In this document: positions 8,799-29,500 of the stretch, piece by piece
How positions within the stretch are numbered: position 1 is the stretch's first letter
Layout of the letters: the number at the start of each line of letters is the position of its first letter
Source: Bacteriovoracaceae bacterium
Lineage (GTDB): Bacteria > Bdellovibrionota > Bacteriovoracia > Bacteriovoracales > Bacteriovoracaceae
NCBI GenBank assembly: GCA_049599895.1
Contig: JBMYPC010000019.1
Location: forward strand, 1-31,974
Direction: 5' to 3'
Length of the DNA stretch: 31,974 nucleotides
The notes under the pieces: generated by a model
Database searches by the model: none
Seen by the model: the letters and a program-made list of their open reading frames with translations, nothing else
Told to the model about the DNA's origin: nothing
Made by a program: the position numbers and the translations under genes

Positions 8799-10718
8799 TT
8801 ATTTTTTATGAAGTTCTGAGTCTGTGTAGGCAAAGTAAACGTCTACGAGAGAGCCAGTTTTCACTTTTCCTTTACTCATGTACTTAATCTTGCTTTTTCC
8901 TTTAAACATTGCTCGGCTATCAATATTGTACTGATATTCAGGATCAAAGGTTTCATTCACATCAAGTTCAATAAGGCCAAACTTTGCAACAGAGATAAGT
9001 TCATCTGATGTTCCAATTCCATCTGAGTTTTTGTCTTTCCAAAGATAGAGTTTTTGAAAAATAGGATCTTTAGCATCGATTTTTTTATCTTTATTGTCGT
9101 CATACTCAAGAAGCTTTTTAAAGCCATTAGGGTTGGCTCGATTACCATTATCGCCAAACAATTGATTAGGTGACGTTACTCCAGCTTTTAAGCTTTCTGC
9201 CTGGACAAGGAAGTATCCTTGATGGTTCTCTTCGGGCCAAAAGGTTTGCTTATGAGAAAGAAAATGACTCTTTTTATTGAATTTTGGATGTTTGTAATCT
9301 TGAAAAACCATTAAGGGGGAATGGTAACCACCACAATACCCATCGGCTCCTGGGTATTGCGCTCTAACATGAATGAAGTTTTTTTCAGGCTTTTTTGTAA
9401 TTTGAATTTTTGAGTCTAATTTACCATCAATCCCGTAATATTTGGGAGTGTAGCGAAGAGTTGTATCCCAATATGTTTGACAACCACTTTTCCAAAGACA
9501 AGTGTCATATGTCTTCTGGTTTGTATTGACCCCTGATAATACTTGAGCCGCTGATACACTTGCATTCTTAACTTCTTGATCTGAGAGTGCATAACTCGCG
9601 TGAAATGCCCCTCTAAAGCAGCGGCTGATCTTTACACCTTTGTTTTCAAATGAGTTTTCAAACTTTCTGATTTTTTGGGACAGAGTAATATTTTGTTTTT
9701 TATCTTCTTGGTATGTCCCAAATGTTTCTACAATATCATCAAAACTAAGACCATCAGTGGCAAAAACTTGGCAATGATCTTCAACCTTTCCAGAGCCTCC
9801 TAAAAGAGACATGTCAGTCATCTCTTGAATGTTAATATCTTCAAATCCAGTCGGCTTTTTATAAGTTCGCCATTGCCACGATCTTCCGATACGAACTCTT
9901 TTTTTGTCGCTTGTTTCTTTTAGGGTACATGAGTTGAAACATTCTGCTGAATTGCTCACATCCATTGAACAGGCCATAGCACAAAGCGATTCTCGAAAAC
10001 ATTTATTAACCACGTTGTTATTTTTTGCGATATGTTCTTCTCCGTGAATATTCATACACATGGTGGCGGCTTGTTTAAAAAATGAAGAATCAAAGTTCGT
10101 TGATTTACAAATATTGCTCGTTCCTACATTCTGGTCGAGGACTTGGTAGAAGATTTCATTAATTTCTGCTGAGTAAAGAGGGTGCCAGTCTTTGATTCTT
10201 GTTTTGTATTGATCATTAACATCTGTAGAGAGAAGATTGGCAAAACCGGAATTATCTTCAGAGATAATAGGCTTAAATGAGACTCCCGAGTTAAAGCATT
10301 TGTCGGGGCTTTTTTCGCAGTCAAGATTACAGAGATTTGGATTCGCTTCACAATACTTATTACAGCTGTTTTTATAAACTTTTTGAACTGAATCAAGAAC
10401 ACTGAGAATCATTGTGTTTGATCTTTGTCGGTCTGCAAATCGTCCAATATGTTGAAGAATAAGTCTTTTTCCTCCACCAAGTTCAAGATGAAGTTGAGTC
10501 TTAGCATCTGGGTTAAGAGGGTTTTTTGATGACCTGTTATTTTGGCCAAAACATGCTGGTTCGTAGAGAACGCCATCAAGTTTTGTGGGGACATAGAGCT
10601 CACTTTTAGGGATTGAAAGGGCGTTGCCACTCATTCCTGTAGGAGTCACTGAGGTTTGCGCTTGAAGGTTGAGACTGATAAACAAACTAGCGATAAATAG
10701 TGAGAATGTAAGTTTCAT
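8799..10718 (-). CDS. Secreted Cys-rich protein with C-terminal Ca-binding FrpC self-processing-module-like domain; occupies the PilY1 position
   Basis: Signal peptide (LQA|Q); many Cys; C-terminal SPL…W…GYFLV…QLFGDN…NGF..L.EYDDNKDKKIDAKDPIFQKLYLWKDKNSDG…DELIS; GGAG SD. Confidence 0.75.
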   Translation of the reverse strand: MKLTFSLFIASLFISLNLQAQTSVTPTGMSGNALSIPKSELYVPTKLDGVLYEPACFGQNNRSSKNPLNPDAKTQLHLELGGGKRLILQHIGRFADRQRSNTMILSVLDSVQKVYKNSCNKYCEANPNLCNLDCEKSPDKCFNSGVSFKPIISEDNSGFANLLSTDVNDQYKTRIKDWHPLYSAEINEIFYQVLDQNVGTSNICKSTNFDSSFFKQAATMCMNIHGEEHIAKNNNVVNKCFRESLCAMACSMDVSNSAECFNSCTLKETSDKKRVRIGRSWQWRTYKKPTGFEDINIQEMTDMSLLGGSGKVEDHCQVFATDGLSFDDIVETFGTYQEDKKQNITLSQKIRKFENSFENKGVKISRCFRGAFHASYALSDQEVKNASVSAAQVLSGVNTNQKTYDTCLWKSGCQTYWDTTLRYTPKYYGIDGKLDSKIQITKKPEKNFIHVRAQYPGADGYCGGYHSPLMVFQDYKHPKFNKKSHFLSHKQTFWPEENHQGYFLVQAESLKAGVTSPNQLFGDNGNRANPNGFKKLLEYDDNKDKKIDAKDPIFQKLYLWKDKNSDGIGTSDELISVAKFGLIELDVNETFDPEYQYNIDSRAMFKGKSKIKYMSKGKVKTGSLVDVYFAYTDSELHKK

Positions 10719-10760
10719 AACTTGCTCCTATACAAGTCTTAATTATAAAGGAAGAACCTG

Positions 10761-11786
10761 TTAGCGCATGTTTACATCGAACTTTATGCTGGCTGCATCA
10801 CTGAATCCTCTGTAAAAACGAAGGTTTCGAACCTTTTGAAAGATCGTTTTTTCCCTGAAATTAGTGCCATCTAAAGTTGCCAATCTGGTGATCTTGTAAA
10901 AATTCTTGCCTAGATCTTCTGTTTCTTCAGTTTCAGACGGATCGGATTTATAAATAACGATCTCCACAGGGGTGACTTTGAGGGACTTCACACCAACAGT
11001 AGGAAAGCAGTCGAGAAAGTCTTTAAAAGTTTCGATTTTTGGGATTGATGTATCACAATGAGATTTCATGACATTATAAAGCTCTGTTTCAATAGAGGTA
11101 TCGGGAACAGTAATTTTATTGATCACTTCAAGTTTTGTATCATCAAGATAAATGAGAATGGCATAGCTTTTGGTCTTTCCGCCTTCAACCTGATCTGTCA
11201 TGGCCTGAACTTTATAGAGACCTTGATTTTCCATCCCTGCAAGAGTTCCAGTATCATCATCCAGGTTCTTTGCTTTTAGGGCATTTTGAAAACTTACTTT
11301 TGTTACTTCCGAACCAGCTGTTTGAAGGTCATTGGGGTCAATGATGACAGAGTTAAAACGAGCTCTTCGGGTATTTGAGAGGAACATGATATAGCTTGAA
11401 TCAGAGTTAAGTTCAATTTCTCGACCTTGGCAATAACGTTTCTCTGTGAGTTCCCAAAAATCAATATCAGTTGAAGTGGTGCTGTCAAAACAAGGGGAGG
11501 GTTTTGTTTCTAAATTATAATTGTTGGCAACTTTAAGTTCTGTAAAAAAGAAATTAGGGGCAGCTCCTCTCAAGTCTCTTGTCAGGTAAATCCTTGCAAA
11601 AGATTCGTCAATTAATTGACCTGATTTTTCTTCATGGTAAGACTCAAGTTTATTTTTTTGTTGTGATACGGCAATGATCCCAGCCGTGATGATCGTTGTT
11701 AGTCCCATGGCCACGACCAGTTCGACAAGCGTGATACCTGATTGGTTAAGGATGTGTCTGTTGTGTTTTAATAAGTGTTTCATCAT
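10761..11786 (-). CDS. Type IV minor pilin/pseudopilin, PilW/GspJ-like
   Basis: Class III signal QSG|ITLVELVVAM with E at +5, followed by a hydrophobic helix; 341 aa. Confidence 0.85.
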   Translation of the reverse strand: MMKHLLKHNRHILNQSGITLVELVVAMGLTTIITAGIIAVSQQKNKLESYHEEKSGQLIDESFARIYLTRDLRGAAPNFFFTELKVANNYNLETKPSPCFDSTTSTDIDFWELTEKRYCQGREIELNSDSSYIMFLSNTRRARFNSVIIDPNDLQTAGSEVTKVSFQNALKAKNLDDDTGTLAGMENQGLYKVQAMTDQVEGGKTKSYAILIYLDDTKLEVINKITVPDTSIETELYNVMKSHCDTSIPKIETFKDFLDCFPTVGVKSLKVTPVEIVIYKSDPSETEETEDLGKNFYKITRLATLDGTNFREKTIFQKVRNLRFYRGFSDAASIKFDVNMR

Positions 11787-12266
11787 TTAGAAACTTCCAA
11801 CTGTTCTTGTGTATATTCTTGTTTTGCTACCCTCAAACTGTGGATGGTAAATCTTAATCACGAGTTCATTGAGAGTGTTATATCCAGCTTCTGTTTTGAT
11901 AAAAACTCCATACCTTCCTGGACAATCAGAACATTTATCAGGTGTCGTCACCACCCCTTGCTGGTTCCAAACAAAGGGCATCTCTTGGACATTACCAAGG
12001 ATGTCACCTTCTGTTTTTGATGAGAAGTTAACTTGATAGTTTTTTGCGTTACTCACCATAGTGCTTAGCAAACTGCTTGAGACAGTCATACCAACTTCAT
12101 AAGTTTTGGCCCTGGTAATATTCTGTGAGACAATCCCCATTCCCTTCATTATAAAAAGTGAAGTTCCCGCTAAAATTGCAGAGGCGATAATAACTTCAGT
12201 TATGGTAAAGCCTGCTTGGTTTAATTTAAATGGGCTACTTTCGTTTACTTTATTGTTCTTTTTCAT
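11787..12266 (-). CDS. Type IV minor pilin, PilV/GspI-like
   Basis: QAG|FTITEVIIAS prepilin motif; 159 aa; start overlaps the upstream stop (TAATG). Confidence 0.87.
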   Translation of the reverse strand: MKKNNKVNESSPFKLNQAGFTITEVIIASAILAGTSLFIMKGMGIVSQNITRAKTYEVGMTVSSSLLSTMVSNAKNYQVNFSSKTEGDILGNVQEMPFVWNQQGVVTTPDKCSDCPGRYGVFIKTEAGYNTLNELVIKIYHPQFEGSKTRIYTRTVGSF

Positions 12267-15200
12267 TACTCTTCGGCCTGTTTTTGTTCATAGGTTTTGA
12301 GCCAGAATTTTTCACTTAATTTATAAAAAGATAATCTTTTGTAGATTCCACTTGGGGCACATTCAGTAGGAGAAGTTGGTCCCGCAAGACCACACTCCGG
12401 TGTAAAGGAAGTCCAGCGAAAGGGATCGGCTCTTTTAATAAGTGTTGCCGAATCACAGTTTCGAATCGCCTCTAATGTGTCGCCTGGAGCATCATCTTTC
12501 CAGATGGGGGTATCGGGTTTTGACTTACAAATATCAGTTTCAATAACGTCTTGATCTTGTAAAAGTTCCGTTGCTTTTGGGTGGTGGATACTCATCCAGT
12601 CAATTCCATTTTGAATAGCACTAGAATGAATTTCTAATTGATCAACGATGAATGTCCCTAACATGATAAGGGGATCGTTTCTTTGCTCAACTTTAAGTCT
12701 TCGGCAGGTAAAAAAGCCCATAACAATTTCGGCTTCAGGTTTAATTGTACAAAGGTCAATAATAGAATAGGTGTGGAATAATTCTTGATTGTGATCACCT
12801 ATAATAATTGAATTTGGAAGCTTTTCAGAGGTTGTCGTCGGTTTGTAGAGCATTTCCCAAATGGAAGTTGCACTTCCTGATCGACCAATGCTTCGCGGGT
12901 CGTATTGAAATCTTTTTGAAAGAGGTTTGAAGTTCCAAGAGTGGAATGATCCTTCAGTGTAATCATTCCCGACTGAAATATATTTAGGCTCTGATATACC
13001 TTCCCCGCAATAACCGGCGTAACTGATAGGTCTGTCTTTGTCATCATTAAGAGGATAAGTCTTATCAGGGTCCATTTTTGTAAAATCAAGAAGAGATCTT
13101 AATTCTTCATTAGAAAGATTAAGTTCACCCGAAGCTTCTTTTGTAAATGTTGGTTTGTAGTCAGTGGAAGTATTATCGGCGCTATAGGTGTTTGAATGAC
13201 CATCCATAAAACGCCAGTTTCTATTTGCGTTTGATTCGGTATAGCCCTTGAAGTCAAGCTCAAGTCCCATTACCTGATCACCGGCCATTTTTGGTTTGAG
13301 ATAGATTCTTCTGGCGAGATACTGTTCTGGTTTATAGAAATTAGGTCCCATCTCTAAAATAAGATCAAGAGCATCTTCTCTTTCGTTTCGATCGGTTATT
13401 GATTCATAGCTGTTGAGATAATCGCTTTTCGTGTTTTTTGCAGTGGCCATGGTAATGGCCATGTCAAGGTTAAGAACCGGTAGCTGATAAAAGAAAAAGC
13501 CTTCTGGGAGTGAAGTCTGGTTACCGTTTTGGTCAACAAGTTTCACTTCCACATCGACCACACTGGGTGCTCTTACATAATTTCCACTATCTTTTGGAAC
13601 GGCATTATCAATGGATTCAGCAGAGACTTGAAGATAGTATTTTGATTGGAGAGTTTTGATGCTCAGAAATCTTGAATAATCAAGGCCATCGCTATCGGAT
13701 TCAGGAAGGTGTTCAGGTCTTGGACCAATGTCGACACCAGAATTATTATCGGCTTCTGTCGTTTTATCTTGGGCCTCTTTTCTTTTGTTGGCAGCATCTG
13801 CAAGTCGGTCACTATAGGTGGAGTCGTCTTGCATGTCTTGAATGGCCTTGATGATTTCTTTGATCATGGTCTTTCTTTTTTCGACTAAGACTTTTTGATA
13901 GGGGTTGTTTGTGATTTCTCTCAGTTCATCGGCAAAACCATCTCTTATAATTTCACTTGCCTCTTCACCTTGGTCTGAATCAACGACTTCAGCGGTGATT
14001 GTATTTTTTGTTGGTCTTCTATTCCCTACTGCATCTCTGAAGGCTCTAATAAAGTTCACAAGCCCAAGTCGGTCTTCAATTTCTCTTTCAAGCTCTCGTC
14101 TTGCCCTATCTGTTTTGACATCTTCATTTCCTGTTATAACGAGAGAGTCAACTGCCTTAAGTATACTGTCATGCATTCTATCGGCATCGTTTTCAACGAG
14201 GTCAACATAGCTTTGATTGGCAAGAAGTTTAACAGCATCAAGTTCTGCTTGGGGCATACCAATGTTTTCAAGCTCCTCATTCATTTTCTTTTTGGCATCA
14301 TCGATTTTTTCTTTATGGGCCTTCTTTTCTCCATTTGAGTTATCACCCATGGCATCCTTGAAGTCATCTTTGGCTTTTTGAATCGCTGGGTAAAGAACTC
14401 TTTCTTTAACTTCTGTTAGAGCGTCTCTCTCAATTGTATCTGCTTCAGATTCTAGATTCGCAGCATCGTTTCTAAGAGTCGTAATGGCCGTGACATTTGC
14501 AGCATTTTTCTCTGCAAATTCTTTGTCGTAAGCCACTTGTTCTTCTCTTAGTTTTTCACCATATTCAGCATGTCTATTTTTCATGATTTCATGAACATCA
14601 TCTTTGAGATAACTTGCCGTGTAGCCAATCAAATGAGTGATGTCGATTTGCGCTTTTTTATCAGGGCCAACTCCAACTCCTACTTGAATTGGAGTTTGGT
14701 CAGAGGGGTTGTCTGTATAAGTGCCTTTAAAATAAAGTTGGGGATTTGTTTCATGAATTTCATCAATGTTTTTAATCTTGATGGGGGAGTAGACTTTTTC
14801 AAGAGCCCGAAAAAATTCTTTATACTCTCCATTACTTAAACCTACGACAAGAGTTCCTTCAGTTGAGATGAACTCTGAAAAAAGAGCTTCAGAAAGATCT
14901 GAGGGGAGGGCCCTTCTTCTTATCCCTTTTTCATTGACGGCATAATTTTCAAGAGCCTCTGGAGGATTAACATATTTATATTTTTTAAGTGGACCACTGG
15001 AGGGAATGTTATAGAGATAGTCAGCTGCGTTCGTTGTGGCTTCATCAGCATCAGCCTTAATCGGTGGAGTGGTAGGAGAGACAATTGAGAGTCCCATGTT
15101 CCTCGCAGTTGGAAAAAAGGTATTTTGACCACTGGTGTGTTTCGCGATCTCATTAAAAATATTATAATAACCCTTATCATAAAGATATTCAGGGTCATCA

Positions 15201-16597
15201 CTTTTAAAGGTTCTGTGTTCTAAGCTAAAAAAGAGAATTGATTCGCTAATAATATCAGGAGTTCTCACCAAATGATTACTATCATTTGTGGTTGTGGGAA
15301 GAGTAAACTCAAATTCGATAAACTCATTAAGTTCAGTAAGTCCTAAGCGAAAGGCATTTTTATTTCTGGCAACGTCTGGATGAGTTCTTATCACGAGTTT
15401 AGACTGGGCTTGAATTGATTGGTTTACAAGACGATCAGAGTAGGGAAAACACGCATCTCTAAAAAATTGGACCTCATCATTACTAAGGGCTTCAGATGAT
15501 TTGCTGAACATAATTTCCATTGCTTCACTATAGTTTTCTCTAACCACTCCACCTTTAATCCCCTCGTAACCAGAGTACTCTGATAAGAGGTTTGTCTTTC
15601 CATCTGGAGAGAAATTACTGACACTTGTGCCTTTATAAGTTTGCAGTGATTGCCCTATAAAAATCGGCGAAAGAAATTGAATCATTGGCTTGATATCTGA
15701 TTTTGTGTCCTCGGCCTCGGGAATCACAAAGTTTCGATTCACGTAAACCGGTGAATGAAACCTAAGACCCGATTCATTTCTAGTGGGTGCAGGAAGGCCT
15801 AAAACATTAAGGATTCTTCCATTATCAACCTCCTCATCGGGAGAAAGAAGGTTTTTTCCGATATAGAGGTCTCGGTTTACAGCAAGAGCGTAGTTATTCA
15901 CCATAAAAGGAGAATAGAGTCCGTAAAGTTCTCCTTCATAGCGAACAAAATTGTCTTGATCAAAGAGATAGATTCTTACCAGGACTTCAAATTGGCTTTC
16001 GTCATTGTCTGTTTTTTGAGGATTGTTGCCGCCGTCAACAATATAGTGAAAGCGCACTTTCGTTATGATGTCTGCTGAGCTTGGTCCATCTTCAGCTAGT
16101 TCTTCTTCGGTTGGCCCATCGTCAGCTTCGTTTTCTTGTTTTTTAGAAACTCTAATAGACTTTACAATTTTTGAGAGAACATGGTTTGAAGAGATGTCAG
16201 TCATTGAAACAGTGAAGTCTAATTCTTTAAGTTTGAGATTACTGTATTCGGGAACGGCCTCTTCGATCTTGGCTGCTGTAAAACTTGGAAGAACAAGCCT
16301 TGCAAAGTTTCCTTCACTGTCCCATTCACATTCATCATCAAGATCTCTGAGTTGCACGAGATCAAGACATTTTCTTTCAAGGATTAAGGCATTGGCATAA
16401 GCAAGGACACTTGAAGCCGCTGTTTCATTGGAAACTCTTTTAGCAGAAAAGCTTGAAACCTTAATGAAGTTTGAATGCTCCACGAATTTCAGAACCGCAA
16501 ATGTCATCACGGCACTAATCATCGAAGTCGCAATAAGAGAGACGCCAATTTTATTTGTAAGGAGAGTCCTTACAGCTTTAAAAATCCTTTTTTCCAT
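12266..16597 (-). CDS. Giant (1443 aa) PilX/GspK-like pilin
   Basis: Basic leader then KIG|VSLIA plus a hydrophobic helix lacking E5 (PilX/GspK hallmark); first gene of the minor-pilin cluster; central charged helical region; Cys-rich ends. Confidence 0.7.
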   Translation of the reverse strand: MEKRIFKAVRTLLTNKIGVSLIATSMISAVMTFAVLKFVEHSNFIKVSSFSAKRVSNETAASSVLAYANALILERKCLDLVQLRDLDDECEWDSEGNFARLVLPSFTAAKIEEAVPEYSNLKLKELDFTVSMTDISSNHVLSKIVKSIRVSKKQENEADDGPTEEELAEDGPSSADIITKVRFHYIVDGGNNPQKTDNDESQFEVLVRIYLFDQDNFVRYEGELYGLYSPFMVNNYALAVNRDLYIGKNLLSPDEEVDNGRILNVLGLPAPTRNESGLRFHSPVYVNRNFVIPEAEDTKSDIKPMIQFLSPIFIGQSLQTYKGTSVSNFSPDGKTNLLSEYSGYEGIKGGVVRENYSEAMEIMFSKSSEALSNDEVQFFRDACFPYSDRLVNQSIQAQSKLVIRTHPDVARNKNAFRLGLTELNEFIEFEFTLPTTTNDSNHLVRTPDIISESILFFSLEHRTFKSDDPEYLYDKGYYNIFNEIAKHTSGQNTFFPTARNMGLSIVSPTTPPIKADADEATTNAADYLYNIPSSGPLKKYKYVNPPEALENYAVNEKGIRRRALPSDLSEALFSEFISTEGTLVVGLSNGEYKEFFRALEKVYSPIKIKNIDEIHETNPQLYFKGTYTDNPSDQTPIQVGVGVGPDKKAQIDITHLIGYTASYLKDDVHEIMKNRHAEYGEKLREEQVAYDKEFAEKNAANVTAITTLRNDAANLESEADTIERDALTEVKERVLYPAIQKAKDDFKDAMGDNSNGEKKAHKEKIDDAKKKMNEELENIGMPQAELDAVKLLANQSYVDLVENDADRMHDSILKAVDSLVITGNEDVKTDRARRELEREIEDRLGLVNFIRAFRDAVGNRRPTKNTITAEVVDSDQGEEASEIIRDGFADELREITNNPYQKVLVEKRKTMIKEIIKAIQDMQDDSTYSDRLADAANKRKEAQDKTTEADNNSGVDIGPRPEHLPESDSDGLDYSRFLSIKTLQSKYYLQVSAESIDNAVPKDSGNYVRAPSVVDVEVKLVDQNGNQTSLPEGFFFYQLPVLNLDMAITMATAKNTKSDYLNSYESITDRNEREDALDLILEMGPNFYKPEQYLARRIYLKPKMAGDQVMGLELDFKGYTESNANRNWRFMDGHSNTYSADNTSTDYKPTFTKEASGELNLSNEELRSLLDFTKMDPDKTYPLNDDKDRPISYAGYCGEGISEPKYISVGNDYTEGSFHSWNFKPLSKRFQYDPRSIGRSGSATSIWEMLYKPTTTSEKLPNSIIIGDHNQELFHTYSIIDLCTIKPEAEIVMGFFTCRRLKVEQRNDPLIMLGTFIVDQLEIHSSAIQNGIDWMSIHHPKATELLQDQDVIETDICKSKPDTPIWKDDAPGDTLEAIRNCDSATLIKRADPFRWTSFTPECGLAGPTSPTECAPSGIYKRLSFYKLSEKFWLKTYEQKQAEE

Positions 16598-16779: not shown

Positions 16780-19134
16780 TTAAGATCCGCAGGCGATGCA
16801 ATCTTCAGGGTTGTCGATTGAGCAGACCATGGTCTCTCTTTCAGCAACTTGGTCAATTTGGCCTTTAGATTCATTTTTAACTGTGAACTGGACAGCATTT
16901 ACGGCTGCTCTTGTTCTGAGATAGTACATTCCGGTTTTAAGACCAGCTTTCCAAGCATAAAAGTGCATTGAGCTGAGTTTTCCAAAGTTTGGCTCTTGCA
17001 TGTGGACGTTCATGCTTTGCCCTTGGCAGATATAAGGTCCTCTTCCTTTGGCCATCTCAATGATAACTTTTTGGCTGATCTCCCACACTGTTTTGTAAAG
17101 CTTTTTCAAATCCTCAGGTATACCATTAACATTTTGGATTGAACCATTGTTGGCAATGATTTGATTTCTGAGTTCATCAGTCCAAAGATTTGCATCAATT
17201 AAGTCTTGGACCAGGTATTTGTTAACGACAGCAAATTCTCCAGAAAGAACTCTTCTGACATAAATGTTTGATGTAATGGGCTCAAAACATTCATTATTTC
17301 CAAGAATTTGTGAAGTTGAAGCTGTTGGCATTGGAGCAACAAGAAGACTGTTTCTCACACCGTGCTTAGCAACTTTCTTCTTAAGCTCATCCCAGTCCCA
17401 AAGTTCTCCATCGGGTTTAACTCCCCAAAGGTCGAACTGAAAGAGTCCCTGGCTCATTGGTGAGCCTTCATAGGTTTCATAAGTTCCTTGCTCTTTCGCT
17501 AGATCACATGAAGCAGTCATAGCGGCAAAGTAAATTGTTTCAAAGATCTTTGAGTTAAGTTCTAGGGCTTCCTTAGAATCAAAGGCATATCTCATCAAAA
17601 AGAAAGTATCTGCTAGACCTTGAACGCCAAGTCCAATTGGTCTGTGTCTCATATTTGATCTTCTGGCCTCTGGAACAGGGTAGTAGTTGACGTCGATAAT
17701 CCTATTAAGGTTAAGAGTCATTCGATAAACTACATCATAGAGTTTTTGGTGGTCATACTTTCCATTTTCAACAAAGCGGTTAAGAGCGACTGAGGCCAGG
17801 TTACAAACAGCAACTTCATCAGGAGCAGTGTATTCCATGATCTCTGTACAGAGGTTTGATGATTTAATTGTCCCTAAGTTCTTTTGATTTGATTTTTCGT
17901 TGGCTGCATCTTTATAGAGCATGTAAGGAGAACCTGTTTCAATTTGCGATTCAAGTACGGCAAACCAAAGGTCTTGAGCTCGAATTGTCTTGATCGCTTT
18001 TCCTTCTTTTTCATATCTTGTATAGAGCGCTTCAAACTCAGCTCCATAACAGTCACTCATTCCTGGACATTCGTGTGGGCAAAAGAGTGACCATGTCTCG
18101 TCTTTTTCAACTCGACTCATAAAGAGATCAGATACCCAAAGAGCGTAGAAAAGATCTCTTGCTCTTGATTCTTCAGCACCTGTATTTTTTTTCATCTCAA
18201 GAAAGTCAAAGATATCTGCATGCCATGGCTCAAGATAAACAGCAAAACTTCCCTTTCTCTTACCACCACCTTGGTCAACATACCTTGCAGTATCGTTGAA
18301 AACCTTAAGCATGGGAACAATTCCGTTAGAAGTTCCATTGGTTCCCTTAATAAAGGAACCTTTGGCACGAATGTTGTGAATACTTAGGCCAATTCCACCA
18401 GCTGATTGGCTAATAAGGGCCGTTTGTTTGAGAGTGTCGTAGATTCCCTCAATACTATCGTCTTGCATCGTAAGAAGAAAACAGCTTGAAAGCTGAGGTT
18501 TGTTTGTCCCTGAGTTAAAAAGTGTTGGAGTTGCGTGAGTAAAGTATTTTTGACTCATTAACTCGTAAGTCTCAAGAGCAGCATCAAGATTATTGATATG
18601 GATACCAAGAGAAACTCTCATGAGCATTTGCCCTGGTCTTTCAACAATTTTACCATTCATCTTAAGAAGGTAACTTTTTTCAAGAGTCTTAAATCCAAAG
18701 TAGTCGTAGTTAAAGTCTCTTTTGTCGATGACTTTTTTATCAAGCATCTCTGCATTTCCCATAACAACTTCGTAAAGTTCTTTAGAAATAAGAGGTGCGC
18801 TTTCCCCTGTTTGCGGGTTGACGTAATGGTACATGGCCTTGATGTTTTCAGAAAAACATCCTTTAGTTTCCTTATGAAGGTTACTAACGGCAATTCTTCC
18901 CGCAAGAGTTGAAAAATGCGGGTGTTTTGTTGATAAATAAGCAGCTGTCTCTGCCGCAAGCTGATCAAGTTCAGTTGTACTGATATTATCATAGATGCCT
19001 TCAATGACCTTTTGAGTAACGATCATTGGGTCTACATGATTGCGATCAAGATCAAAGCAAAGGGCTTCAATTCTCTCCGTGATCTTATCAAACTTTACAG
19101 GTTCTTTTTCTCCACCTCTTGTGATGACGTACAT
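16780..19134 (-). CDS. nrdA: Class Ia ribonucleotide reductase alpha subunit (eukaryote-like subclass) with ATP cone
   Basis: V.TRGG…FDKI ATP cone; [40 protein letters not shown]-terminal CIAC. Confidence 0.97.
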
Positions 19135-19136
19135 AA

Positions 19137-20147
19137 TTAAAACTCCGCGTCTAATGTAAATGTGTTTTGTCCCTTGTCTGACATAACACCTGATTTCTGA
19201 TATTCAGAAACTCTTTTTTCAAAGAAGTTTGTTTTCCCTTCAAGACTAATAAGCTCCATCCAATCAAAAGGATTAGCGGTTTCGAAATGCTTCGGACACC
19301 CGAGCTGATCAAGCCAGTGGTCGGCGACAAATTCAATATATTGAGTCATAAGATCTGAGTTCATTCCTATAAGACTTACAGGGAGTGCCTCAGTAATGAA
19401 TTCTTTTTCAATTTCAACAGCTTCAAGGATGATTTGCTTGATTTCTTCTGTGTCGAGTTGGTTTTCTTTTATAAGGTGACTATGAATGAGACAAGCAAAC
19501 TCACAGTGTAGGCCTTCATCACGAGAGATAAACTCATTTGACGTACAGAGACCTGGCATTAAGCCACGCTTTTTAAGCCAAAAGATTGCGCAAAAAGAAC
19601 CTGAAAAGAAGATTCCTTCAATTGCCGCAAAAGCAACCAAACGATGAGCAAAGCTCTTGTCTGATTGAATCCATTTAAGGGCCCAATTGGCTTTTTTAGA
19701 AACACAAGGAAGTTCATCAATAGCGTTAAAGTGCTTTTGTTTTTCTACAGGGTCTTTGATGTAGGTATCGATTAAAAGACTATAAGTCTCGCTGTGGATG
19801 TTTTCCATGGCAATTTGAAAACCATAAAAACAACGAGCTTCAGGTACTTGAACATCGTTATAAAATCTTAGAGCGAGGTTCTCATTAACGATTCCATCAC
19901 TTGCCGCAAAAAAGGCGAGAACATGGGAGATGAAATGTCTCTCGTTATCGTTAAGTTTTTCCCAATCTGCTAAGTCGGGCATGAGATCAATTTCTTCTGC
20001 GGTCCAGAAAACTGCCATATGCTTTTTATACATTTCCCACACATCTTGATATTGGATGGGGAAGAGGACGAATCGGTCGCTAGAAGGAGCGAGGATAGGG
20101 TCTAGATTAGCTTCAGGGCTCGTTTCGCTTGTAGGTGTAGGTTTCAT
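19137..20147 (-). CDS. nrdB: Class Ia ribonucleotide reductase beta subunit
   Basis: [21 protein letters not shown] (radical Tyr), EGIFF, DEGLH, NFFE..V.EY; TAAGGAG SD at 20160-20154. Confidence 0.97.
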
Positions 20148-20160
20148 CTGATTCTCCTTA

Positions 20161-20340
20161 ATCGTTAGATCGAGAGTATCGTTGGTCGCACTTAGAAGAG
20201 TAGACGTACTAGTCTCGGCAGATTATTCAATCTGTTCATTAGAGATGCGGCGTGCTACAGCTTCAACTTGTGTGTTAAAAAAAGTTGGATATCTCGTGAG
20301 CTATCCAAAATACGACCAACGATGTTTTTGAGTCTCTCTA
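20161..20340 (-). ncRNA. Candidate structured cis-regulatory leader RNA of nrdBA
   Basis: Long-range 13-bp helix (20323-20311 with 20190-20178), outer GAGAG/CTCTC helix and several internal hairpins; the element runs from the predicted TSS to the SD. Confidence 0.55.
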
Positions 20341-20346
20341 GAAATC

Positions 20347-20374
20347 AAGATAGCAAATCTTTCTTGTTTGCCAA
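20347..20374 (-). promoter_or_regulatory. Candidate sigma70 promoter of nrdBA
   Basis: TTGGCA-N16-TATCTT with extended -10 (TGc); predicted TSS ~20340. Confidence 0.5.
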
Positions 20375-20566
20375 GAAAAAATTCTCTCAATATTTTGTCA
20401 CAACCGAAGAATATGCGAAAAAATAAAATGTGAGAAGATTTATCGAAAATCATTATTCTATTGAAATTTAAAGGGAAAAAACCTGTTTGAAAATGTAAGA
20501 ATGAGTGACAAGGAAATCATAAATTTCCTTACACAGGGAAAAAAAAGTTAAATTTCTCGCTTTGGG

Positions 20567-20615
20567 CCACAAGATGTAGTGGTGCCGTTGCAGTTCTTGG
20601 CCCTAGATATTGTGT
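20567..20615. promoter_or_regulatory. Tandem NrdR boxes
   Basis: ccaCaAgATgTaGtgg (20567-20582) and gccCtAgATaTtGtgt (20600-20615) match acaCwAtATaTwGtgt; they are 33 bp apart and upstream of nrdBA. Confidence 0.8.
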
Positions 20616-20684
20616 TGTGAGGGAAAAGTTGACCGTGGGAAAAGACAATTCATGAAACTAAGCTTTTCTTAGGTGAGAGATGCT

Positions 20685-21623
20685 CTAGGCAGAGATTTTT
20701 AGCTTATCGACAGGGCTATTTTTTAATTCGACCCTTCTTTTGTCATATATTTGAGTTGTCGTAACAGAAGCGTGGCCAACTTCATGAGAAACGCTAAAAA
20801 GATCAACTCCAATTTCAAGTAAATGAGTGATGAAAGTTGCTCGAGCAGAGTGAGGAGTGACTCTGCCTAGAGAGAGCTTTTTTGCGTAGCTTGAGATGAT
20901 CTCGTTTATGGTTTTAGGATTGAGGGGTTTGTTGAGATAGTCAGGGTCAGAAGGGTTTCGACTAGGTTGGAAAAGCCAGTCTTCAAGACCAAATTCTCGT
21001 TCATTTTCATTCATCCAGCTTTTATAATTTTCAAAAGCCTCCATAAAAAGAGGAGTCAGCCTCTTTATCCCGCGCTTACCACCTTTTGCCTCATATTCGA
21101 GAACCCAAAAATCAGCATGTTTTTGAATGTCTTTAACTTTCCTAAAAAGAATCTCGCTTTTTCTTAGTCCGGTGGAAAAGAAGGCAACTAAAAGAAAGTA
21201 ATGAAGAGGTCCTGAAGTTTTATTGGCCTTTGCAAGCCTGAGAATACTGTTTACGTGTTCAATTTGGAGCGCTTGTGTAGGTTTCTTTGCGGTTGGTTTT
21301 GGCCTTTTCAAAGTGGCCACCGGATTGTGTTCAAGCTCCGACTTTGAAATGAGAAACTTAAAGAGGCTTGAGAGAGAAGCTAGTTTTCGTGAGATTGTTT
21401 TATTACAGGCTTTATCGCCTTTAGGGCCACCAATCTCCATAAGATTGTTTCGGTAGTGAAGGACATGATCAATTGAGATCTCTTTGAAGGTCTGGACCTT
21501 GGGATAGTTTTTCATTAAGAAGATAAAAAACTGAGTAATGTCTCGTCGATAGTTTGATCTTGTGTGATGACTTGTAAAATTGAGAAAGAAAATTTCTGGG
21601 ATTTCCCAAACACCTATATCCAT
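20685..21623 (-). CDS. XerC/XerD-like tyrosine recombinase
   Basis: N-terminal SAM-like domain (T..NYRRDI..F; TISRKLASLSSLFKFL); catalytic TGLRKSE, K, HSAR, GH and TTQIY. Confidence 0.92.
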   Translation of the reverse strand: MDIGVWEIPEIFFLNFTSHHTRSNYRRDITQFFIFLMKNYPKVQTFKEISIDHVLHYRNNLMEIGGPKGDKACNKTISRKLASLSSLFKFLISKSELEHNPVATLKRPKPTAKKPTQALQIEHVNSILRLAKANKTSGPLHYFLLVAFFSTGLRKSEILFRKVKDIQKHADFWVLEYEAKGGKRGIKRLTPLFMEAFENYKSWMNENEREFGLEDWLFQPSRNPSDPDYLNKPLNPKTINEIISSYAKKLSLGRVTPHSARATFITHLLEIGVDLFSVSHEVGHASVTTTQIYDKRRVELKNSPVDKLKISA

Positions 21624-23044: not shown

Positions 23045-26000
23045 ATGAGTAAATTATTTTTAATTTTTAGTATTTCAATCACAACACTTCTGTTTTCAAG
23101 TCATGGGTTTTCTAAAACCAGGGCCTTGATTACAAATCCACCAAAATGGCTGAAAAACGTTTGTCAGGAAGGACAGGTTAGTCAACCGGATTGCCCCCTC
23201 CACCCTCACCAAGTGGTTTTTGGCAAAAGTCGTTTTAAAGCAAAACAAGGCGGTGGTTGGAAGGTCATGAACCCAGTTTCAGTACGACTGCAAAAAGTTG
23301 AAGGGGATAGTACTGAAGATCTTAAAGTGATTACAAACCTTAAGGGGACGAAGTCAAACTTACGATCAAGAATAACTAACTGGGTTCAAGAGTTTGAACA
23401 AGAAAATAGTAAGGCAATTATCTTAGAGCTTGAAAAGGCACAAAAGCTAACTGAAACCTCTACGAATCCCCCTGTGACAGACGCACAGTTATTGGAATGT
23501 CTGATAAAAGAAAAGATTGTTAAAGGAGATGGTGATGAAGTTCTCATCCATCAGTTTTCAAATGAGAAGCTTGGTGAAATTGAAGATGACATTGATCTTC
23601 AACGGCAAAGAGAAGAAGAATTTGAGAATACTTATGGCGCTGCAGAGGTTGACGAAAGTATTATCGACAGTATCTCAGAAGCAACATTAAACCTAGCTGA
23701 AATAGGGGAGGAGTATCTTGGTGATGAGCTTTTAAAGCAAGTACAAAGCCTGTTTCGTTTTGATGCGGATTTTGGCGGACTTAATCTCGATGTTCGAACA
23801 AAAAGACATATCTATAAGCATAATGAACCGACTCAAGAAGGAGGCCCATTAAAAGTCTATTATATTATTGATAGAGTCTCCGTAAAACTTGGAACAGAGT
23901 TTGATTTTTTACGGGCCTATATTTTGAAATACCCGGGGGGAGGCTTCTCTATTGGTCTTGATGGCTCCATTTATTTTGAACTTTCAGAAATTAGAAAGAT
24001 GAAGGCCCACGATGTCAGAGCGGGGGAAAGACTTGAGAACCTTCAAGAGAAGGCAAAGGAAATTAAAGAAAAAATAAAAAATCTTCTTTTGAGTCATAAA
24101 GAAGATTTCGATGTTGATCCCACAGCCGGAACTGAAGAGATCGATGGCAAACCAATCTTAAGCGGTGAAAATCAAGCAAAGTTATCAAAACTTCACCGCC
24201 TGGTCCTAGGAGCTGTTGAAGTGCCATTTAACTCTGAAATGGCAAAAAAGGTAAAACCTTTTCGAACAAAAAAACTTGGCACTACGGTAAGTGGTGGAGT
24301 GAACCTGCAATTGAGTTACGGTGAGTATCAGCCAGGCTCTCTTATTGCCAATGCTTATGTCTATATTGGAGGGAGAGTTTTTAAAGGTGCAAAACTTACG
24401 ACAACGGCAACACCAAGGCCGAGTAAAAATGATCCTACGAAAACTCGATACATGGACCTTAAAATTCGACTTGAGTCAAATCAGGGACATTCAATAAGAA
24501 TTGGAACGGAAGCAAGAACAACTGATCTTGCTGAAGAGTTGGTGGGTGTTGATCTTATTCCCATTCGATTTGGTTTTAGACCTTACGAGGCGAGACTGAG
24601 TAGCACTGATATTCAGGCCGTAGTTTATCATTATCGTTTTGATCTTGAGACTGAATCAGGGAGAGAAGCTTATGATAGAGCTTATCTTGGGAATTTTGAG
24701 TTTGCTGAAAAATTGAAGGGAAAAGGTGGAGTTGAGCTTATCGATATAAAGCTTGAGCTTGCCGAGCACGATCGTATGGAGAATAAGCAGACTTTAGTAT
24801 TTAATGCCTACAAAAAAAATAAGAGTGAAACAAGGGCCAATGAAATCATACACTTTAGTTCAATTGCAGATATGGACAAGGCCATAAAAGAGATGAAAGA
24901 AGCTGAGGATCTCAATGATCATAAAATGTATCCAAACTCTCGCATCTCTGGAACAACAATACCAGTTGATAATAAGTTAAAAGTCTTTAGAAATATTGAA
25001 GAGCAAAAGCGAAGTATTGGCTTTAGTCTTAATCTCGATGATCAAGGACAAGTGACTAATGAAAAGATGGACATCTCATTTAAGTTCCGTGACAAAGTCC
25101 TCAACAAAAGTGAGTACGCTGCCTTTGTTGGAGAAATTCAAGAAGTCTCTGAAGATGTTATGACCCAAGCAGGAATTCCGAAAAGAGTTCCAGAAAGTTT
25201 TAATAAGAAAAATGCCGAGATTGACCTAACGATGGCCTATAGTCTTACCAATGATCAATTTCAAAGAGCATTTTTAGATGCAGATGACGAAAAAATTAAG
25301 CAGATCATCGCCAATAGCTATGACATTGACCCTGAGTCGATTCGAAAAGATGGCGGTGTTTTGAACTTCCTAAGAAGAGTGACAAGTCAAACTGGTGCAG
25401 TTGTTCGAGAAGCCGGACAATTTCTAACAGGAGAGGAAAGTCATGACCTAGGGGGATATAAAGAGGCCCTCAATACCTATGAGCGTTGGAAGAGAATTCA
25501 GTCAACCGAGAACGGTCGCGAAAAAAGAGATCTTATTAATGATTTTTTTACAGACCACCCTCGAAGAAAACAAGATATTCTTCAACAAGCATTAGAGGGC
25601 GAGGATATTGATTTAGTGTTTTCGGGAAAAACTCCATTTGAAGATAAAGTTCAAGGGACAGCCAAGCTTAATACCACAGGTGAGTCTCACTTAAGAGACC
25701 TTGATGAACTTGGCGAAACCAGACAAGCATTAATCCGCGGTCCACGATCGCAGCATAGTTCTCGAACTTTTCAAAAGAAAAAAGAGCCACTTATTATTGA
25801 ATCAGACCTTCAAGTTTCTCATCTCGATGTTCAAAACGAAGTTGTTAAATCAGATGGCAAAAAAGATAAAACAAGCCCTGTTATCACAGTCTCGACAAGT
25901 AAAGAGCCAATGTTTGTGGCCGTGCAAGTGACAAAAAAGTCAGGTTGGTTTGGTTATAAGTCTTCTGAAACGTTTTATATTGATCGAAATGAGCTGGACT

Positions 26001-26185
26001 ATAGTGATGGAAATGTTTCGATTAAGCCTAATAAAGAAATGGAAAAGTGGCTTGATGGAAAACCTATCACGTACGTCAATGTTCAATACTCAGACGATGG
26101 TGAAAATTGGAGTAAGTCTTTTAGTAACCGTCCGAAAGTCGAGTCAAAAGCAATGAATCGTTTTAAGCCCCAAAGGCGTCGATAG
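23045..26185 (+). CDS. Large secreted hypothetical protein (1046 aa)
   Basis: Long ORF with an N-terminal signal peptide; no recognised catalytic motif; the middle is rich in Gly/aromatic beta-strand-like segments. Confidence 0.85.
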   Translation: MSKLFLIFSISITTLLFSSHGFSKTRALITNPPKWLKNVCQEGQVSQPDCPLHPHQVVFGKSRFKAKQGGGWKVMNPVSVRLQKVEGDSTEDLKVITNLKGTKSNLRSRITNWVQEFEQENSKAIILELEKAQKLTETSTNPPVTDAQLLECLIKEKIVKGDGDEVLIHQFSNEKLGEIEDDIDLQRQREEEFENTYGAAEVDESIIDSISEATLNLAEIGEEYLGDELLKQVQSLFRFDADFGGLNLDVRTKRHIYKHNEPTQEGGPLKVYYIIDRVSVKLGTEFDFLRAYILKYPGGGFSIGLDGSIYFELSEIRKMKAHDVRAGERLENLQEKAKEIKEKIKNLLLSHKEDFDVDPTAGTEEIDGKPILSGENQAKLSKLHRLVLGAVEVPFNSEMAKKVKPFRTKKLGTTVSGGVNLQLSYGEYQPGSLIANAYVYIGGRVFKGAKLTTTATPRPSKNDPTKTRYMDLKIRLESNQGHSIRIGTEARTTDLAEELVGVDLIPIRFGFRPYEARLSSTDIQAVVYHYRFDLETESGREAYDRAYLGNFEFAEKLKGKGGVELIDIKLELAEHDRMENKQTLVFNAYKKNKSETRANEIIHFSSIADMDKAIKEMKEAEDLNDHKMYPNSRISGTTIPVDNKLKVFRNIEEQKRSIGFSLNLDDQGQVTNEKMDISFKFRDKVLNKSEYAAFVGEIQEVSEDVMTQAGIPKRVPESFNKKNAEIDLTMAYSLTNDQFQRAFLDADDEKIKQIIANSYDIDPESIRKDGGVLNFLRRVTSQTGAVVREAGQFLTGEESHDLGGYKEALNTYERWKRIQSTENGREKRDLINDFFTDHPRRKQDILQQALEGEDIDLVFSGKTPFEDKVQGTAKLNTTGESHLRDLDELGETRQALIRGPRSQHSSRTFQKKKEPLIIESDLQVSHLDVQNEVVKSDGKKDKTSPVITVSTSKEPMFVAVQVTKKSGWFGYKSSETFYIDRNELDYSDGNVSIKPNKEMEKWLDGKPITYVNVQYSDDGENWSKSFSNRPKVESKAMNRFKPQRRR

Positions 26186-26504: not shown

Positions 26505-29500
26505 TTATTCTTGAGACTTATCTAATGACTGAATACATTTTTTAAGCTCTTTAATCCTTCGTGTCAGTTTAGCTGAATTGATCGGGCCCAATTTATCATC
26601 ATATGTTTTAAGCTCTGTTTCATGAGTTTTATGGGCCTGTTCTAAAAAGTAGGCGGCAAACTTATAATCACCTCTTCTTAAATCATAGAGAGAATAGGAC
26701 AAAAGCCGTAACTGCTGTTTAATAATGAACTGATCCTCAATGTATTCAGAGATGGCCTTGAAATAATCATTCAATTCATCGTAGTTATCTCCCGCAAATT
26801 CAAGAACCTGGTATTCTTCTTCACCCTTATAACAGAAACTGGCGCCAAGAGGAGAGGGAACAGGAGTTACGTTAATGCGATATTCTTTAGCGTAATAATA
26901 GTTTGATTGGAGTTCCGCAAAGAACTCGAGACCTTCCTGAAGGATGTAGGCCAAGTTTTCAGATTCTCTAAGCTCTCTTTTTTGCTCTTGACTCAGGCGA
27001 ATACACTGTAAACCTTCTTTTTCTTGCTCATCTTTACTTGTTATACAGAAGGTATCGGCCCAAGAGTCAAAATCTGCTTTTGTGAAATTACTGTGATTAT
27101 CAACAAAAAATTGAGCATTGAGTTGGTAGGGAGTTAAGGCTTGAGTGGCAATTTTTTCCATACATTGGGGAGCAAGTTTCCAAAGTTCATCAATCTCTTC
27201 TTTACTCACATTTAACGGAAAGTCTCTTTCGAGAGTCTCTAGCCATTCAGAATTTACATCAAATGAAAGGTGGGCCAAACTTCTTTGAAAGCTTGAGGTA
27301 TTAGCAATAAGCGGAGTTTGCAGATTAATATTTGTTACGAGATTAAGGACTTTCATTTTTACGTCTTGAGAATAAAGTACTTCAGGGATGAGCTTGTTTC
27401 TTAACTCAGCTAGAGCATGGTCTGATAGAGGGATTTCCGGACTTTTGTTAGAGTTTTCAACGAGTCTATCGACATAGTTTGAGAGAAGGTCTGGTTTTTC
27501 ATTAAAAAGATTTGTGATGGTATCTGGATTAAACAGGTCTTCCATAGAATCATAAACATCTTTTGAGAAGTTGTTGGCAATAAGATCATTTTGTTCTTTA
27601 AGCTTATTGTGAATCTCAGAAGATTTCTTAAGAAGGAAACATTCTACGAGAGAAGGACGTTCAGCGTGAGTGAGTTTGATAAGAGTATTAAAGAAGTTTT
27701 TAATATCCCATGGAGAGTCATTAGAGTTTTCAAAACTTGCTTCAAAGAAAAGTTCTTCGATCTTTTTACTGTGTAAGATATTTGAAACTGTCTCTCGGCA
27801 TTTGGGATTCGGTGCCATTTTAGCATCTCTTAAAAAGTGAACGATTCCTGTGAAATGCTTCTTATAGGGAGAGTCCTCAGCATTGTCGGGAACACAAAGC
27901 TGTTTCATCTCTTTTGAGATTTGAAAGGACCTATTTATGTGCTCATCACAAAAAGCTTGAAAACGCAGCTCATCGGTAAAGTTCTGAACCAAAGGAGTGA
28001 GGTTACTGTAATTATAAAGATTAACAGTTTGCAAATAGAATTTTGATTCTTGAGAGAACTCGTTATTCACATCATAGTTTGGAGTAATATTTTTAAATAC
28101 TAACTTTGAATCTTCATAGAATTCATCGAGATCAGGTAATTGAAACTCGGGGAGACCTTCAAGCTTAAACCTTAAAGACTTTGCCTTAAAATGCTGAGTG
28201 GACTCAGGCATGATGCTATTAACCGCAACGGTTCCAAGAAAAGAATGTTTTTTCTTTGACTGAAAACTCTTCTCAAGACTTCCTAAGAAAAAATGTTCAA
28301 ATGAATCAACGAGTTCAGTGAGTCCTTCTTGAGTATTTCTTTCTTGAATAAGCTGGTAGGTATAATCAATATCATTTCCAATGTCTCCAATAAGAAGCTT
28401 CATCTGCTCATCATATTGATCTCCAAGGATTTCTTTTAGAGGGAGTTCGTTGAGCTTTTGTGCCGCAAGACCTTTGAGCCAACTTTTTAATTTTTCTCCA
28501 AGGGCCTTATTCATAACAACTTCTTGATTATAGCGATCAAGAACGAAGCCTTCGATTAAATCGAAAGTTTCGATATATTTTCCTTCTTTTAAAAGCTTCA
28601 AGGTCTCCTGGAGGGTTGTACCTGTTGAGTTCAAGAGCCTGAGTCGTACATTTTCGATTTCATTGATAAGCTCTTTTGAATCATGAGAGTCTCCAGATAG
28701 TTCAATAATCTTGTCTTTTAGTTCATCAATTTTGAAGTTAATAAGGTCTTTCGAAAAATTGATAAGTTTCGGTTCGGTCTCGGGGGAATTAAAAAAGATG
28801 GTATTTGAAACTTGTGTGACCTCATTTAAAACGTCTTTGGGGGTAATTGACGCTTCGTAGATAAGTAAATCAAAGCGAGAGCGAAGATTTTCTTCTTTTA
28901 TACTGTCGAGGGTTTGGAGCTGGCTTATTAAAGAATCGAAATCTCTCTTTGCTTTTCTTTGATCTTCAGGCTTTGCAAAGTTGGTTTTTTTTAGTCTTTC
29001 AGAAAAACTTTGAAAAGCTTCATTCTCAGCAGTGGTTAAAAAACCAATTTCAGACATTGCACTTTCAGTGAATGATTGGACCTTTTCTTCCCTAGGCTTT
29101 GCGAGTTTGCCAAAGTGAAGACTTGCATAATCGGCAGCAGAGGGTGAGAGGAGTGTTGATTCAAGGTGACTAATCAGTTCAAATGAGCTTTTTTCAAGTG
29201 CAGAGCCTTTAAACTTTGGAGACTTCGCCTGAGCGTAATAAAGTTCATGGGACTTATCCGTTGCGACTTGTGACAGTTTCTTTACTCCACCACCTCCAAG
29301 AGCTGAAAGTGCCTGGAGAGTAAAGTTCTCTTTGAGTTTGAGGACGACATCCTCAAAAGTTTCCTCTTCTTTTTTTGAGAAGAAAATATTGAAGGCCTTG
29401 TTGATTTCTTTGTCAATGCTAATGAGAAGCCTACTGCTCGAAAGGTCTATCCCAGAGTCGTAAGCTTGAATTTGATTTAAGTAATTTCTAATAACATCGA

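Follow-up and report, generated by a model that had tools for sequence, protein, structure and literature searches.

A likely small-RNA target: the nrdBA leader of a marine Bacteriovoracaceae bacterium and a putative regulon shared across the family

The region upstream of the ribonucleotide reductase (RNR) genes nrdBA in a marine bacterium of the predatory family Bacteriovoracaceae probably belongs to the targets of a small-RNA (sRNA) regulon that extends across the family and is so far undescribed. It is probably an sRNA target and not a new riboswitch, since its fold is unshared while a CA repeat within it is found family-wide and matches a conserved, probably regulatory sRNA. On balance we favor a scaffold specific to one lineage that is placed under GcvB-like sRNA repression. 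According to the proposed mechanism, the element would be the 5' leader of the nrdBA mRNA, lying behind a predicted promoter, and an sRNA encoded elsewhere and predicted to be driven by sigma54 would base-pair with nrdB and with other DNA-replication mRNAs, repressing their translation while the predator is not replicating. Its sites on nrdB would be a CA loop, codons 3-6 (where it may block the ribosome), and a 5' GAGAGAC. The long helix of the leader would keep the 5' end of the mRNA beside the ribosome site, with GAGAG masking the anti-Shine-Dalgarno (anti-SD) sequence CUCUC, and pairing of the second seed at GAGAGAC would free this anti-SD.

The nrdBA locus

The element is located on the minus strand, between a gene for a Xer-like recombinase and nrdB-nrdA. 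All coordinates refer to the window, i.e., the whole stretch of 31,974 nucleotides that was analyzed.

20685..21623, minus strand: Xer-like tyrosine recombinase gene (PF00589, PF02899), the upstream neighbor, outside the mechanism
20600..20615, minus strand: NrdR-box-like site 1 (consensus scan)
20567..20582, minus strand: NrdR-box-like site 2, with a 17-bp spacer to the first site (consensus scan)
20347..20374, minus strand: predicted sigma70-type promoter with extended -10, TTGGCA-16-TG-TATCTT, predicted transcription start ~20340 (promoter scan)
20153..20158, minus strand: Shine-Dalgarno (SD) of nrdB (sequence)
19137..20147, minus strand: nrdB, class I RNR small chain (PF00268)
16780..19134, minus strand: nrdA with ATP cone, the only match to an RNR large chain in the genome (profile search)

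The closest named relatives of NrdB likewise belong to the Bacteriovoracaceae. NrdB is present at E <= 1e-100 in 175 of the 237 family genomes, with a top identity of 85%, in a comparison set that includes no second genome from the genus of the source. PF02867 has one match in the genome (97% complete), which is nrdA itself. For comparison, nrdB leaders were taken from 73 loci (13 including this genome, and the next best 60), 71 of which were parsed. The promoter proposed in an earlier note on this DNA was recovered by the promoter scan at 20374-20347, and 40 of the 71 leaders have a comparable extended -10.

The genome contains nrdR. Scanning with a NrdR-box consensus revealed NrdR-like boxes upstream of nrdB in 58/71 family leaders, and 16 of the 19 box pairs among these leaders are spaced by 17 bp; a spacing of 15-16 bp is given for NrdR boxes in PMC13584703. 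The pair in this genome (20567-20615) precedes the predicted -35 by ~200 nt, an unusually large distance for a repressor site. A further motif, TGTAAG, is found upstream of nrdB in 51/71 leaders (here at ~20529-20534, minus strand) and is possibly a second transcription-factor site. Elsewhere in the window, a minus-strand cluster at 8799-16597 comprises four genes (1443, 159, 341, and 639 aa), two of whose products carry weak N-terminal methylation motifs (pilin/pseudopilin-like) and two of which have no Pfam match. Two large ORFs at 23045-26185 and 26505-31634 (1046 and 1709 aa) also have no Pfam match.

A conserved CA tract before replication and dNTP genes

The leader contains a short repeat that is conserved in the family.

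20269..20275, minus strand: CA tract ACACACA, family-conserved, predicted site for the sRNA (UG)n seed (leader comparison)

This tract occurs in 57/59 nrdB leaders from genomes that bear the sRNA described below, in 0/3 leaders from genomes without it, and in 9/9 leaders of unknown status, whereas a reverse-strand tract was observed in 0/59 leaders and the genome background is 2.7%. The pooled counts are 66/73 with the sRNA vs. 0/11 without; this pool combines the 57/59 set with 20 leaders and two additional rows, scores one genome (G243) as sRNA-lacking for want of an entry among the listed matches, and ignores kinship, the 11 negatives representing 8 genera. The tract is thus absent from nrdB leaders in 7/73 sRNA-bearing genomes. 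Loss of the tract tracks loss of the sRNA even inside one genus (both in G082, neither in G083 and G084). Similarly, thyA leaders contain the tract in 16/23 genomes with the sRNA vs. 0/5 without (2 of 30 loci being unparsed). In all leaders that have both elements (39/39), the tract is located downstream of the extended -10. Against the favored reading, the tract of the studied leader is short and lies 128 nt from the start, the family median being 48. It is mostly unpaired in the predicted fold (0.64 for 20276-20270).

Within this genome, sense tracts precede dnaE, thyA, smc, scpA, and parA-like and parB-like genes. Many non-replication genes are also CA-marked, among them amtB, gcvP, nagZ, and genes for a TolC-like protein and a TonB receptor. 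Of 121 exact 9-mer sites taken from five other genomes (30/39 for G070), 73 are coding and 48 non-coding; 33 of the non-coding sites are at most 60 nt from a sense start and none is at most 60 nt from an antisense start. Across six genomes the tract recurs at thyA (5/6), dnaE (4), tdk (3), and nrdB (3), as well as at smc and a parB-like gene. A count of CA tracts combined with an SD in 30 family genomes (451 vs. 227 in the control) is noisy and carries no weight as support. The conservation of the tract points to a trans-acting sRNA.

A candidate (UG)n small RNA

Three orphan CA sites were traced to a single conserved element on the opposite strand, the candidate sRNA gene of ~90 nt. It combines a sigma54-type promoter, a (UG)n repeat where transcription is predicted to begin, a GGA-loop hairpin, the sequence GUCUCUC, and a terminator. 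A search for promoter plus repeat, built on a sigma54 consensus, matched 111/237 genomes vs. 1 match in the reversed control. A covariance model identified the sRNA in 129/150 family genomes, just one of which has more than a single copy; three of the matches are weak, and one of those is without seeds. Outside the family, the model gave one weak match among 121 genomes of other families. The copy in this genome (G000:C69:8534-8625, minus strand, equal to L534:1534-1623) is flanked by a gene of the arginase family and an ORF of 77 aa. Across 39 aligned copies the two seeds are invariant and the stems vary, the hairpin having double-sided changes at all five modelled pairs in an alignment fitted to the model. 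The sRNA has no Rfam match. A description of the nrdBA leader or of the (UG)n RNA was not found in literature listings and the starts of abstracts.

Hfq was not found in the genome, and CsrA is present. The GGA is unpaired in 52 of the 53 extracted sRNA sequences, and an sRNA assisted by CsrA is described in B. subtilis (PMC7430163). Binding of CsrA to the invariant GGA loop is conceivable, if doubtful, as a helper function. As a separate observation, a G+C-rich structured intergenic region of the same genome (G000:C3:11050-11420, equal to L264:1050-1420; z -4.3 on the minus strand) ends in a terminator-like hairpin whose 18-nt loop contains two ACACAC motifs, and is possibly an sRNA sponge; for the candidate sponge (G000:C3:11060-11420), neither a homologue nor an Rfam match was found.

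Predicted pairing of the sRNA with its putative targets

Besides the CA tract, two sites for the sRNA are predicted on the nrdB mRNA.

20131..20141, minus strand: CCUACAC(CUAC), nrdB codons 3-6, predicted site for the sRNA 5' seed (net -7.5 kcal/mol with an opening cost of 0.3; genome scan, best site)
20332..20338, minus strand: GAGAGAC, 5' strand of the closing helix (putative anti-anti-SD) and predicted sRNA seed-2 site (folding, duplex energy)

Each of the three sites has a net energy of about -6.7 to -7.8 kcal/mol after opening costs (-6.7 to -7.8 for the CA tract with the (UG)n seed, -6.8 for GAGAGAC with seed 2). CCUACAC complements GUGUAGG, the seed variant of this genome, and the codon site falls within the five-codon window for sRNA action given in PMC7534054. 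Among 2033 genes scored, nrdB takes rank 11 with seed 1, rank 221 with seed 2, and rank 4 with both summed, near smc, thyA, scpA, and a gene that we take from its sequence to be recA-like. The seed-2 motif occurs in 31/59 nrdB leaders vs. 11 on the reverse strand and a background of 21%, partly due to its likeness to the SD. Both seed motifs together were found in three genes of this genome vs. 1.8 expected, a number within the range of chance.

Covariation between the sRNA and a target was observed for an orphan gene that encodes a 115-aa protein with no Pfam match (e.g., L323:1576-1920 in G003; orthologues L595-L664). This gene is present in 92/150 family genomes and in 0/20 genomes listed without the sRNA; it was not found in the studied genome. 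Its leaders contain the tract in 65/71 cases and often several AGGA motifs. At the base beside the tract, U stands opposite A of the RNA in 9/12 cases and A opposite U in 11/13, the other two having G, and with one representative per genus the association has a Fisher p of 0.005. The target in G021 matches a private variant of the RNA. Cognate duplexes are better than those with shuffled partners (median p 0.004, p <= 0.013 in 30 one-per-genus draws). Since a test of seed flanks at 106 CA sites in 42 genomes, mostly of nrdB and thyA, gave no cognate advantage (p 0.95 and 0.39), the covariation is that of one target gene.

The tracts could instead be bound by an RNA-binding protein (e.g., an RRM protein, of which the genome encodes three) or simply enhance translation, with the (UG)n RNA serving another role or few mRNAs and the leader fold just exposing the tract. 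Three RRM genes in the genome, the lack of seed-flank covariation at nrdB and thyA, tracts that are often multiple and in some genera placed in hairpin loops, and the enhancement of translation by ACA motifs alone (PMC3879156) are all consistent with this explanation. We nevertheless rate it as rather unlikely, as the tracts are gone where the sRNA is missing, within a single genus as well, and the A:U/U:A covariation at the orphan target requires base pairing.

For the sRNA regulon that we favor, the positions of the sites suggest repression. The set of targets, together with the attack phase of Bdellovibrio, during which DNA is not replicated (PMC10547168), suggests action in the attack phase; in Bdellovibrio this phase is reported to be mainly sigma28-driven (PMC3627812), which makes the timing of a sigma54-driven RNA tentative.

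Structure of the nrdBA leader

The earlier note had presented an unrecognized structured leader RNA of nrdBA on the minus strand. The analysis supports a structured, promoter-proximal 5' leader that belongs to no Rfam family and is likely regulatory; it does not support the note's proposal of a nucleotide-sensing riboswitch or attenuator. All coordinates and pairings that it listed are present in the sequence, and the folded leader comprises the following features.

20311..20323, minus strand: 5' arm of the long-range helix, apparently lineage-specific (folding; no homologue in 236 genomes)
20277..20308, minus strand: hairpin followed by C-U7, a weak and unconvincing terminator (-6.2 kcal/mol)
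20194..20264, minus strand: inner stem-loop domain, including the hairpin 20234-20219 (folding)
20178..20190, minus strand: 3' arm of the long-range helix (folding; identical in one related contig)
20172..20176, minus strand: CUCUC, predicted anti-SD with two alternative partners, the 5' GAGAG and the SD (P(CUCU/GGAG) 0.24)
20161..20172, minus strand: imperfect copy of the 3' arm, a small local hairpin (P 0.0 with the 5' arm)

The outer helix (20323-20311/20190-20178) is predicted with pair probabilities of 0.83-1.0. It is formed by 11 Watson-Crick pairs plus G-U and A-U, and reaches 16 bp with G-U pairs. The hairpin at 20234-20219 (P 0.76-1.0), UUGGAUA/UAUCCAA (P 0.37-0.98), and, with P 0.47, the GAGAG/CUCUC pairing proposed to close the structure were likewise recovered. 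The alternative pairings fared differently. A slipped register, in which the 5' arm would pair with the duplicated 3' arm, has P 0.0 and a duplex energy of -11.3 vs. -19.8 kcal/mol, and the supposedly competing stems are predicted at P <= 0.09 (CAACUU/AAGUUG) and 0.01 (GAGAU/AUCUC).

Folding z-scores are -2.9 for the minus and -3.1 for the plus strand. Shuffling produced a perfect 11-bp inverted repeat in 5 of 1000 sequences, and among 999 long upstream windows of the genome 7 have a long-range perfect repeat of that length, which places the perfect core of the helix near the genome background once selection is allowed for. The perfect repeat of the outer helix is uncommon, not exceptional.

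Blocking the 5' site in the folding model raised P(CUCU/GGAG) from 0.24 to 0.52 (0.68 with the 5' arm forced open), increased the opening cost of the SD from 1.7 to 2.9 kcal/mol, and lowered its unpaired probability from 0.53 to 0.39. A switch specific to this leader, which releases the anti-SD, is accordingly modest in the model and differs from the one proposed earlier; we advance it tentatively, as a possibility that folding energies suggest. A more far-reaching scheme is speculative: Bacteriovoracaceae would silence the whole replication and dNTP program while hunting by means of one Hfq-independent sigma54 two-seed RNA, possibly loaded by CsrA, and in this lineage the nrdBA leader would have acquired a long clamp through which binding at the extreme 5' end closes the ribosome site at a distance of 180 nt. 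Regulation of the pyrC type, which consists in a shift of the transcription start, was considered and rejected: placing the start at 20338 instead of 20341 brings P(GAGAG/CUCUC) only from 0.45 to 0.58.

Conservation of the leader fold

The earlier note had named a lack of conservation of the helices in relatives as grounds against its reading, and such a lack was observed. No homologue of the leader was found in 236 family genomes, where BLAST returned just chance matches of 22-29 nt, in 7 of them. A comparably long helix was found neither in the 70 other nrdB leaders (one case of 10 bp, the rest <= 7 bp) nor in 20 further ones (<= 6 bp). Given that the family leaders hold neither a homologue nor a comparable helix, the long helix appears to be lineage-specific as far as the comparison reaches. 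Scanning 8 of 64 metagenome parts gave a best match of 81% identity, hence no close relative in those parts. The sequencing runs X2, X4, and X5 contained no leader match, and run X1 may be where the window itself comes from.

The sole close relative is a 161-nt contig from sequencing run X3, which covers 20086-20258 and excludes the 5' arm and the CA tract. Its 3 substitutions among the 111 leader bases are all consistent with pairing on the minus strand, whose fold they do not affect; the plus-strand fold loses 5.1 kcal/mol through them, a value within the range of random transitions. Another contig, perhaps from a different organism than the X3 contig, has 19 changes and 3 gaps in 160 upstream bases.

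The regulon could be real and the helix and inner stems still incidental or transcript-stabilizing, in which case nrdB would be regulated weakly or through the coding site only. Such an explanation would fit the occurrence of 11-bp long-range repeats in 7/999 upstream windows, the missing homologue, and the small energy of the switch. It is at odds with the folding z-score of -2.9 and with the contrast between the 3 changes in the leader of the X3 contig and the 19 in the upstream bases of the other contig, bearing in mind that the two may represent different organisms; we judge it improbable.

A mobile palindromic repeat of the MITE/REP-like type was rejected, as no further copies of the element occur in the genome and viral contigs gave 0 matches. 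Other nrdB leaders have structures of their own: genus-specific conserved hairpins or structured motifs were noted in L004, L193, and L197 (genus g10), in L003/L190/L192 (g12), and in g55 and g76, some with the CA tract in the loop and apparent compensatory changes in the stem. The leaders L004, L193, and L197 gave no Rfam match at gathering.

Riboswitch, attenuator, and independent RNA

A new metabolite-sensing riboswitch or transcription attenuator responding to nucleotide status would account for the multi-stem fold, the hairpin followed by U7, and the location before RNR genes, and other family branches do carry AdoCbl-like elements in their nrdB leaders (L016:2551-2671 and L018:1268-1405, as well as L670, L671, and L678-L682), with visible cores among them. 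Where scanned, with the same models that gave nothing in the studied leader, these elements score below gathering (E 3.8e-5 and 0.011); their occupation of the same leader position indicates that the site swaps regulatory modules. In the studied leader, neither sequence nor helix is conserved. Rfam gave no relevant match in the window at gathering or in 19900-20900 down to E 10, and at the same thresholds there was no match to cobalamin or B12-box families or to the purine clan, in agreement with the earlier reading that the leader has neither a cobalamin nor a 2'-dG core. A conserved aptamer core with covarying helices was not found by BLAST against 236 genomes or among 90 other leaders, a set with no genome of the same genus.

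The attenuator part fares no better. The terminator-like hairpin proposed at 20308-20277 has -6.2 kcal/mol and was not called by the terminator scan. The stem thought to compete with it requires 20269-20242, located 3' of the U-tract, and cannot decide termination because these bases are untranscribed until after the U-tract has been made. No minus-strand ORF of at least 20 aa starts inside the leader, and a 15-aa upstream ORF was rejected, since it starts 3' of the U-tract without an SD and both of its codons touched by the X3 changes alter the amino acid. Because the genome encodes one RNR large chain, no B12-dependent alternative RNR was found that such a switch would serve, and NrdR already provides nucleotide sensing. 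Altogether, we consider a riboswitch or attenuator very improbable.

An independent non-coding RNA, either a plus-strand antisense RNA or a second 6S-like RNA, can be set aside as hardly credible: the plus-strand rod is the more stable (-58.1, z -3.1) and does form the 19-bp helix with G-U pairs that had raised the antisense possibility, yet no sigma70, sigma54, or sigma28 match is directed into the element, the X3 changes weaken the plus fold by 5.1 kcal/mol at no expense to the minus fold (a result within the random range), and no 6S (RF00013) match exists here, the 6S RNA gene of the genome being on another contig (L001:1501-1673, equal to G000:C53:14358-14530; 47.2 bits).

Comparison with known systems

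The favored explanation, an sRNA regulon acting on replication and dNTP genes, shifts the significance from the nrdBA leader to the RNA. By itself the leader matters less, as the elaboration of one lineage and, by conservation, no riboswitch candidate. A regulator that enforces the hunting-phase stop of replication on replication mRNAs in Bacteriovoracaceae was not found described in the literature; with a single conserved RNA, a repeat seed, and a predictable list of targets, the question becomes directly testable in culturable Halobacteriovorax/Bacteriovorax.

The Qrr RNAs of Vibrio, which act as repressors, are short, require sigma54, and end in an intrinsic terminator; they depend on Hfq, act on quorum-sensing targets, and are not known to have a UG-repeat seed. 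The (UG)n RNA resembles them in its sigma54-type promoter and terminator, and has no Rfam match.

Structured or long leaders of RNR genes are known from other bacteria. In Streptomyces, nrdABS, a class Ia RNR operon, is controlled by a cobalamin riboswitch (as cited in PMC12528414). The arrangement is similar here, with a structured leader before class I RNR genes and AdoCbl-like elements at the same position in other branches of the family, and differs in that the nrdBA leader has no cobalamin match and the genome has one RNR large chain. For nrdAB of Pseudomonas aeruginosa, the account in PMC12528414 is of a long 5' UTR that affects expression alongside NrdR, with no proven riboswitch. The studied locus shares the long leader and, as predicted, NrdR control, but whereas that account identifies no trans factor for P. 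aeruginosa, a candidate RNA with predicted sites is available in this case.

The nearest parallel in working is GcvB of enteric bacteria, whose R1 region pairs with CA-rich enhancers in targets such as gltI, dppA, and yifK (PMC3879156). As described there, both would be trans-acting RNAs with multiple targets and a conserved, unstructured GU-rich seed that recognizes CA-rich repeats located within ribosome sites or upstream of them. Unlike GcvB, the (UG)n RNA is ~90 instead of 200 nt long, has its seed at the extreme 5' end, is preceded by a sigma54-type promoter, has predicted targets enriched for replication and dNTP genes, and occurs in a genome in which no Hfq was found. Membership in the GcvB family was rejected for want of an Rfam GcvB match and of Hfq. 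In purpose, the closest counterpart is EcpR1 of Sinorhizobium meliloti, which PMC4414408 describes as a trans-acting RNA that represses cell-cycle and replication mRNAs independently of Hfq. EcpR1 differs in its GC-rich loop, which pairs with dnaA and gcrA, in its induction by stress, and in its unrelated sequence (PMC4414408). By analogy, the system proposed here is GcvB-like in its working and EcpR1-like in its purpose, and would be a member of neither family.
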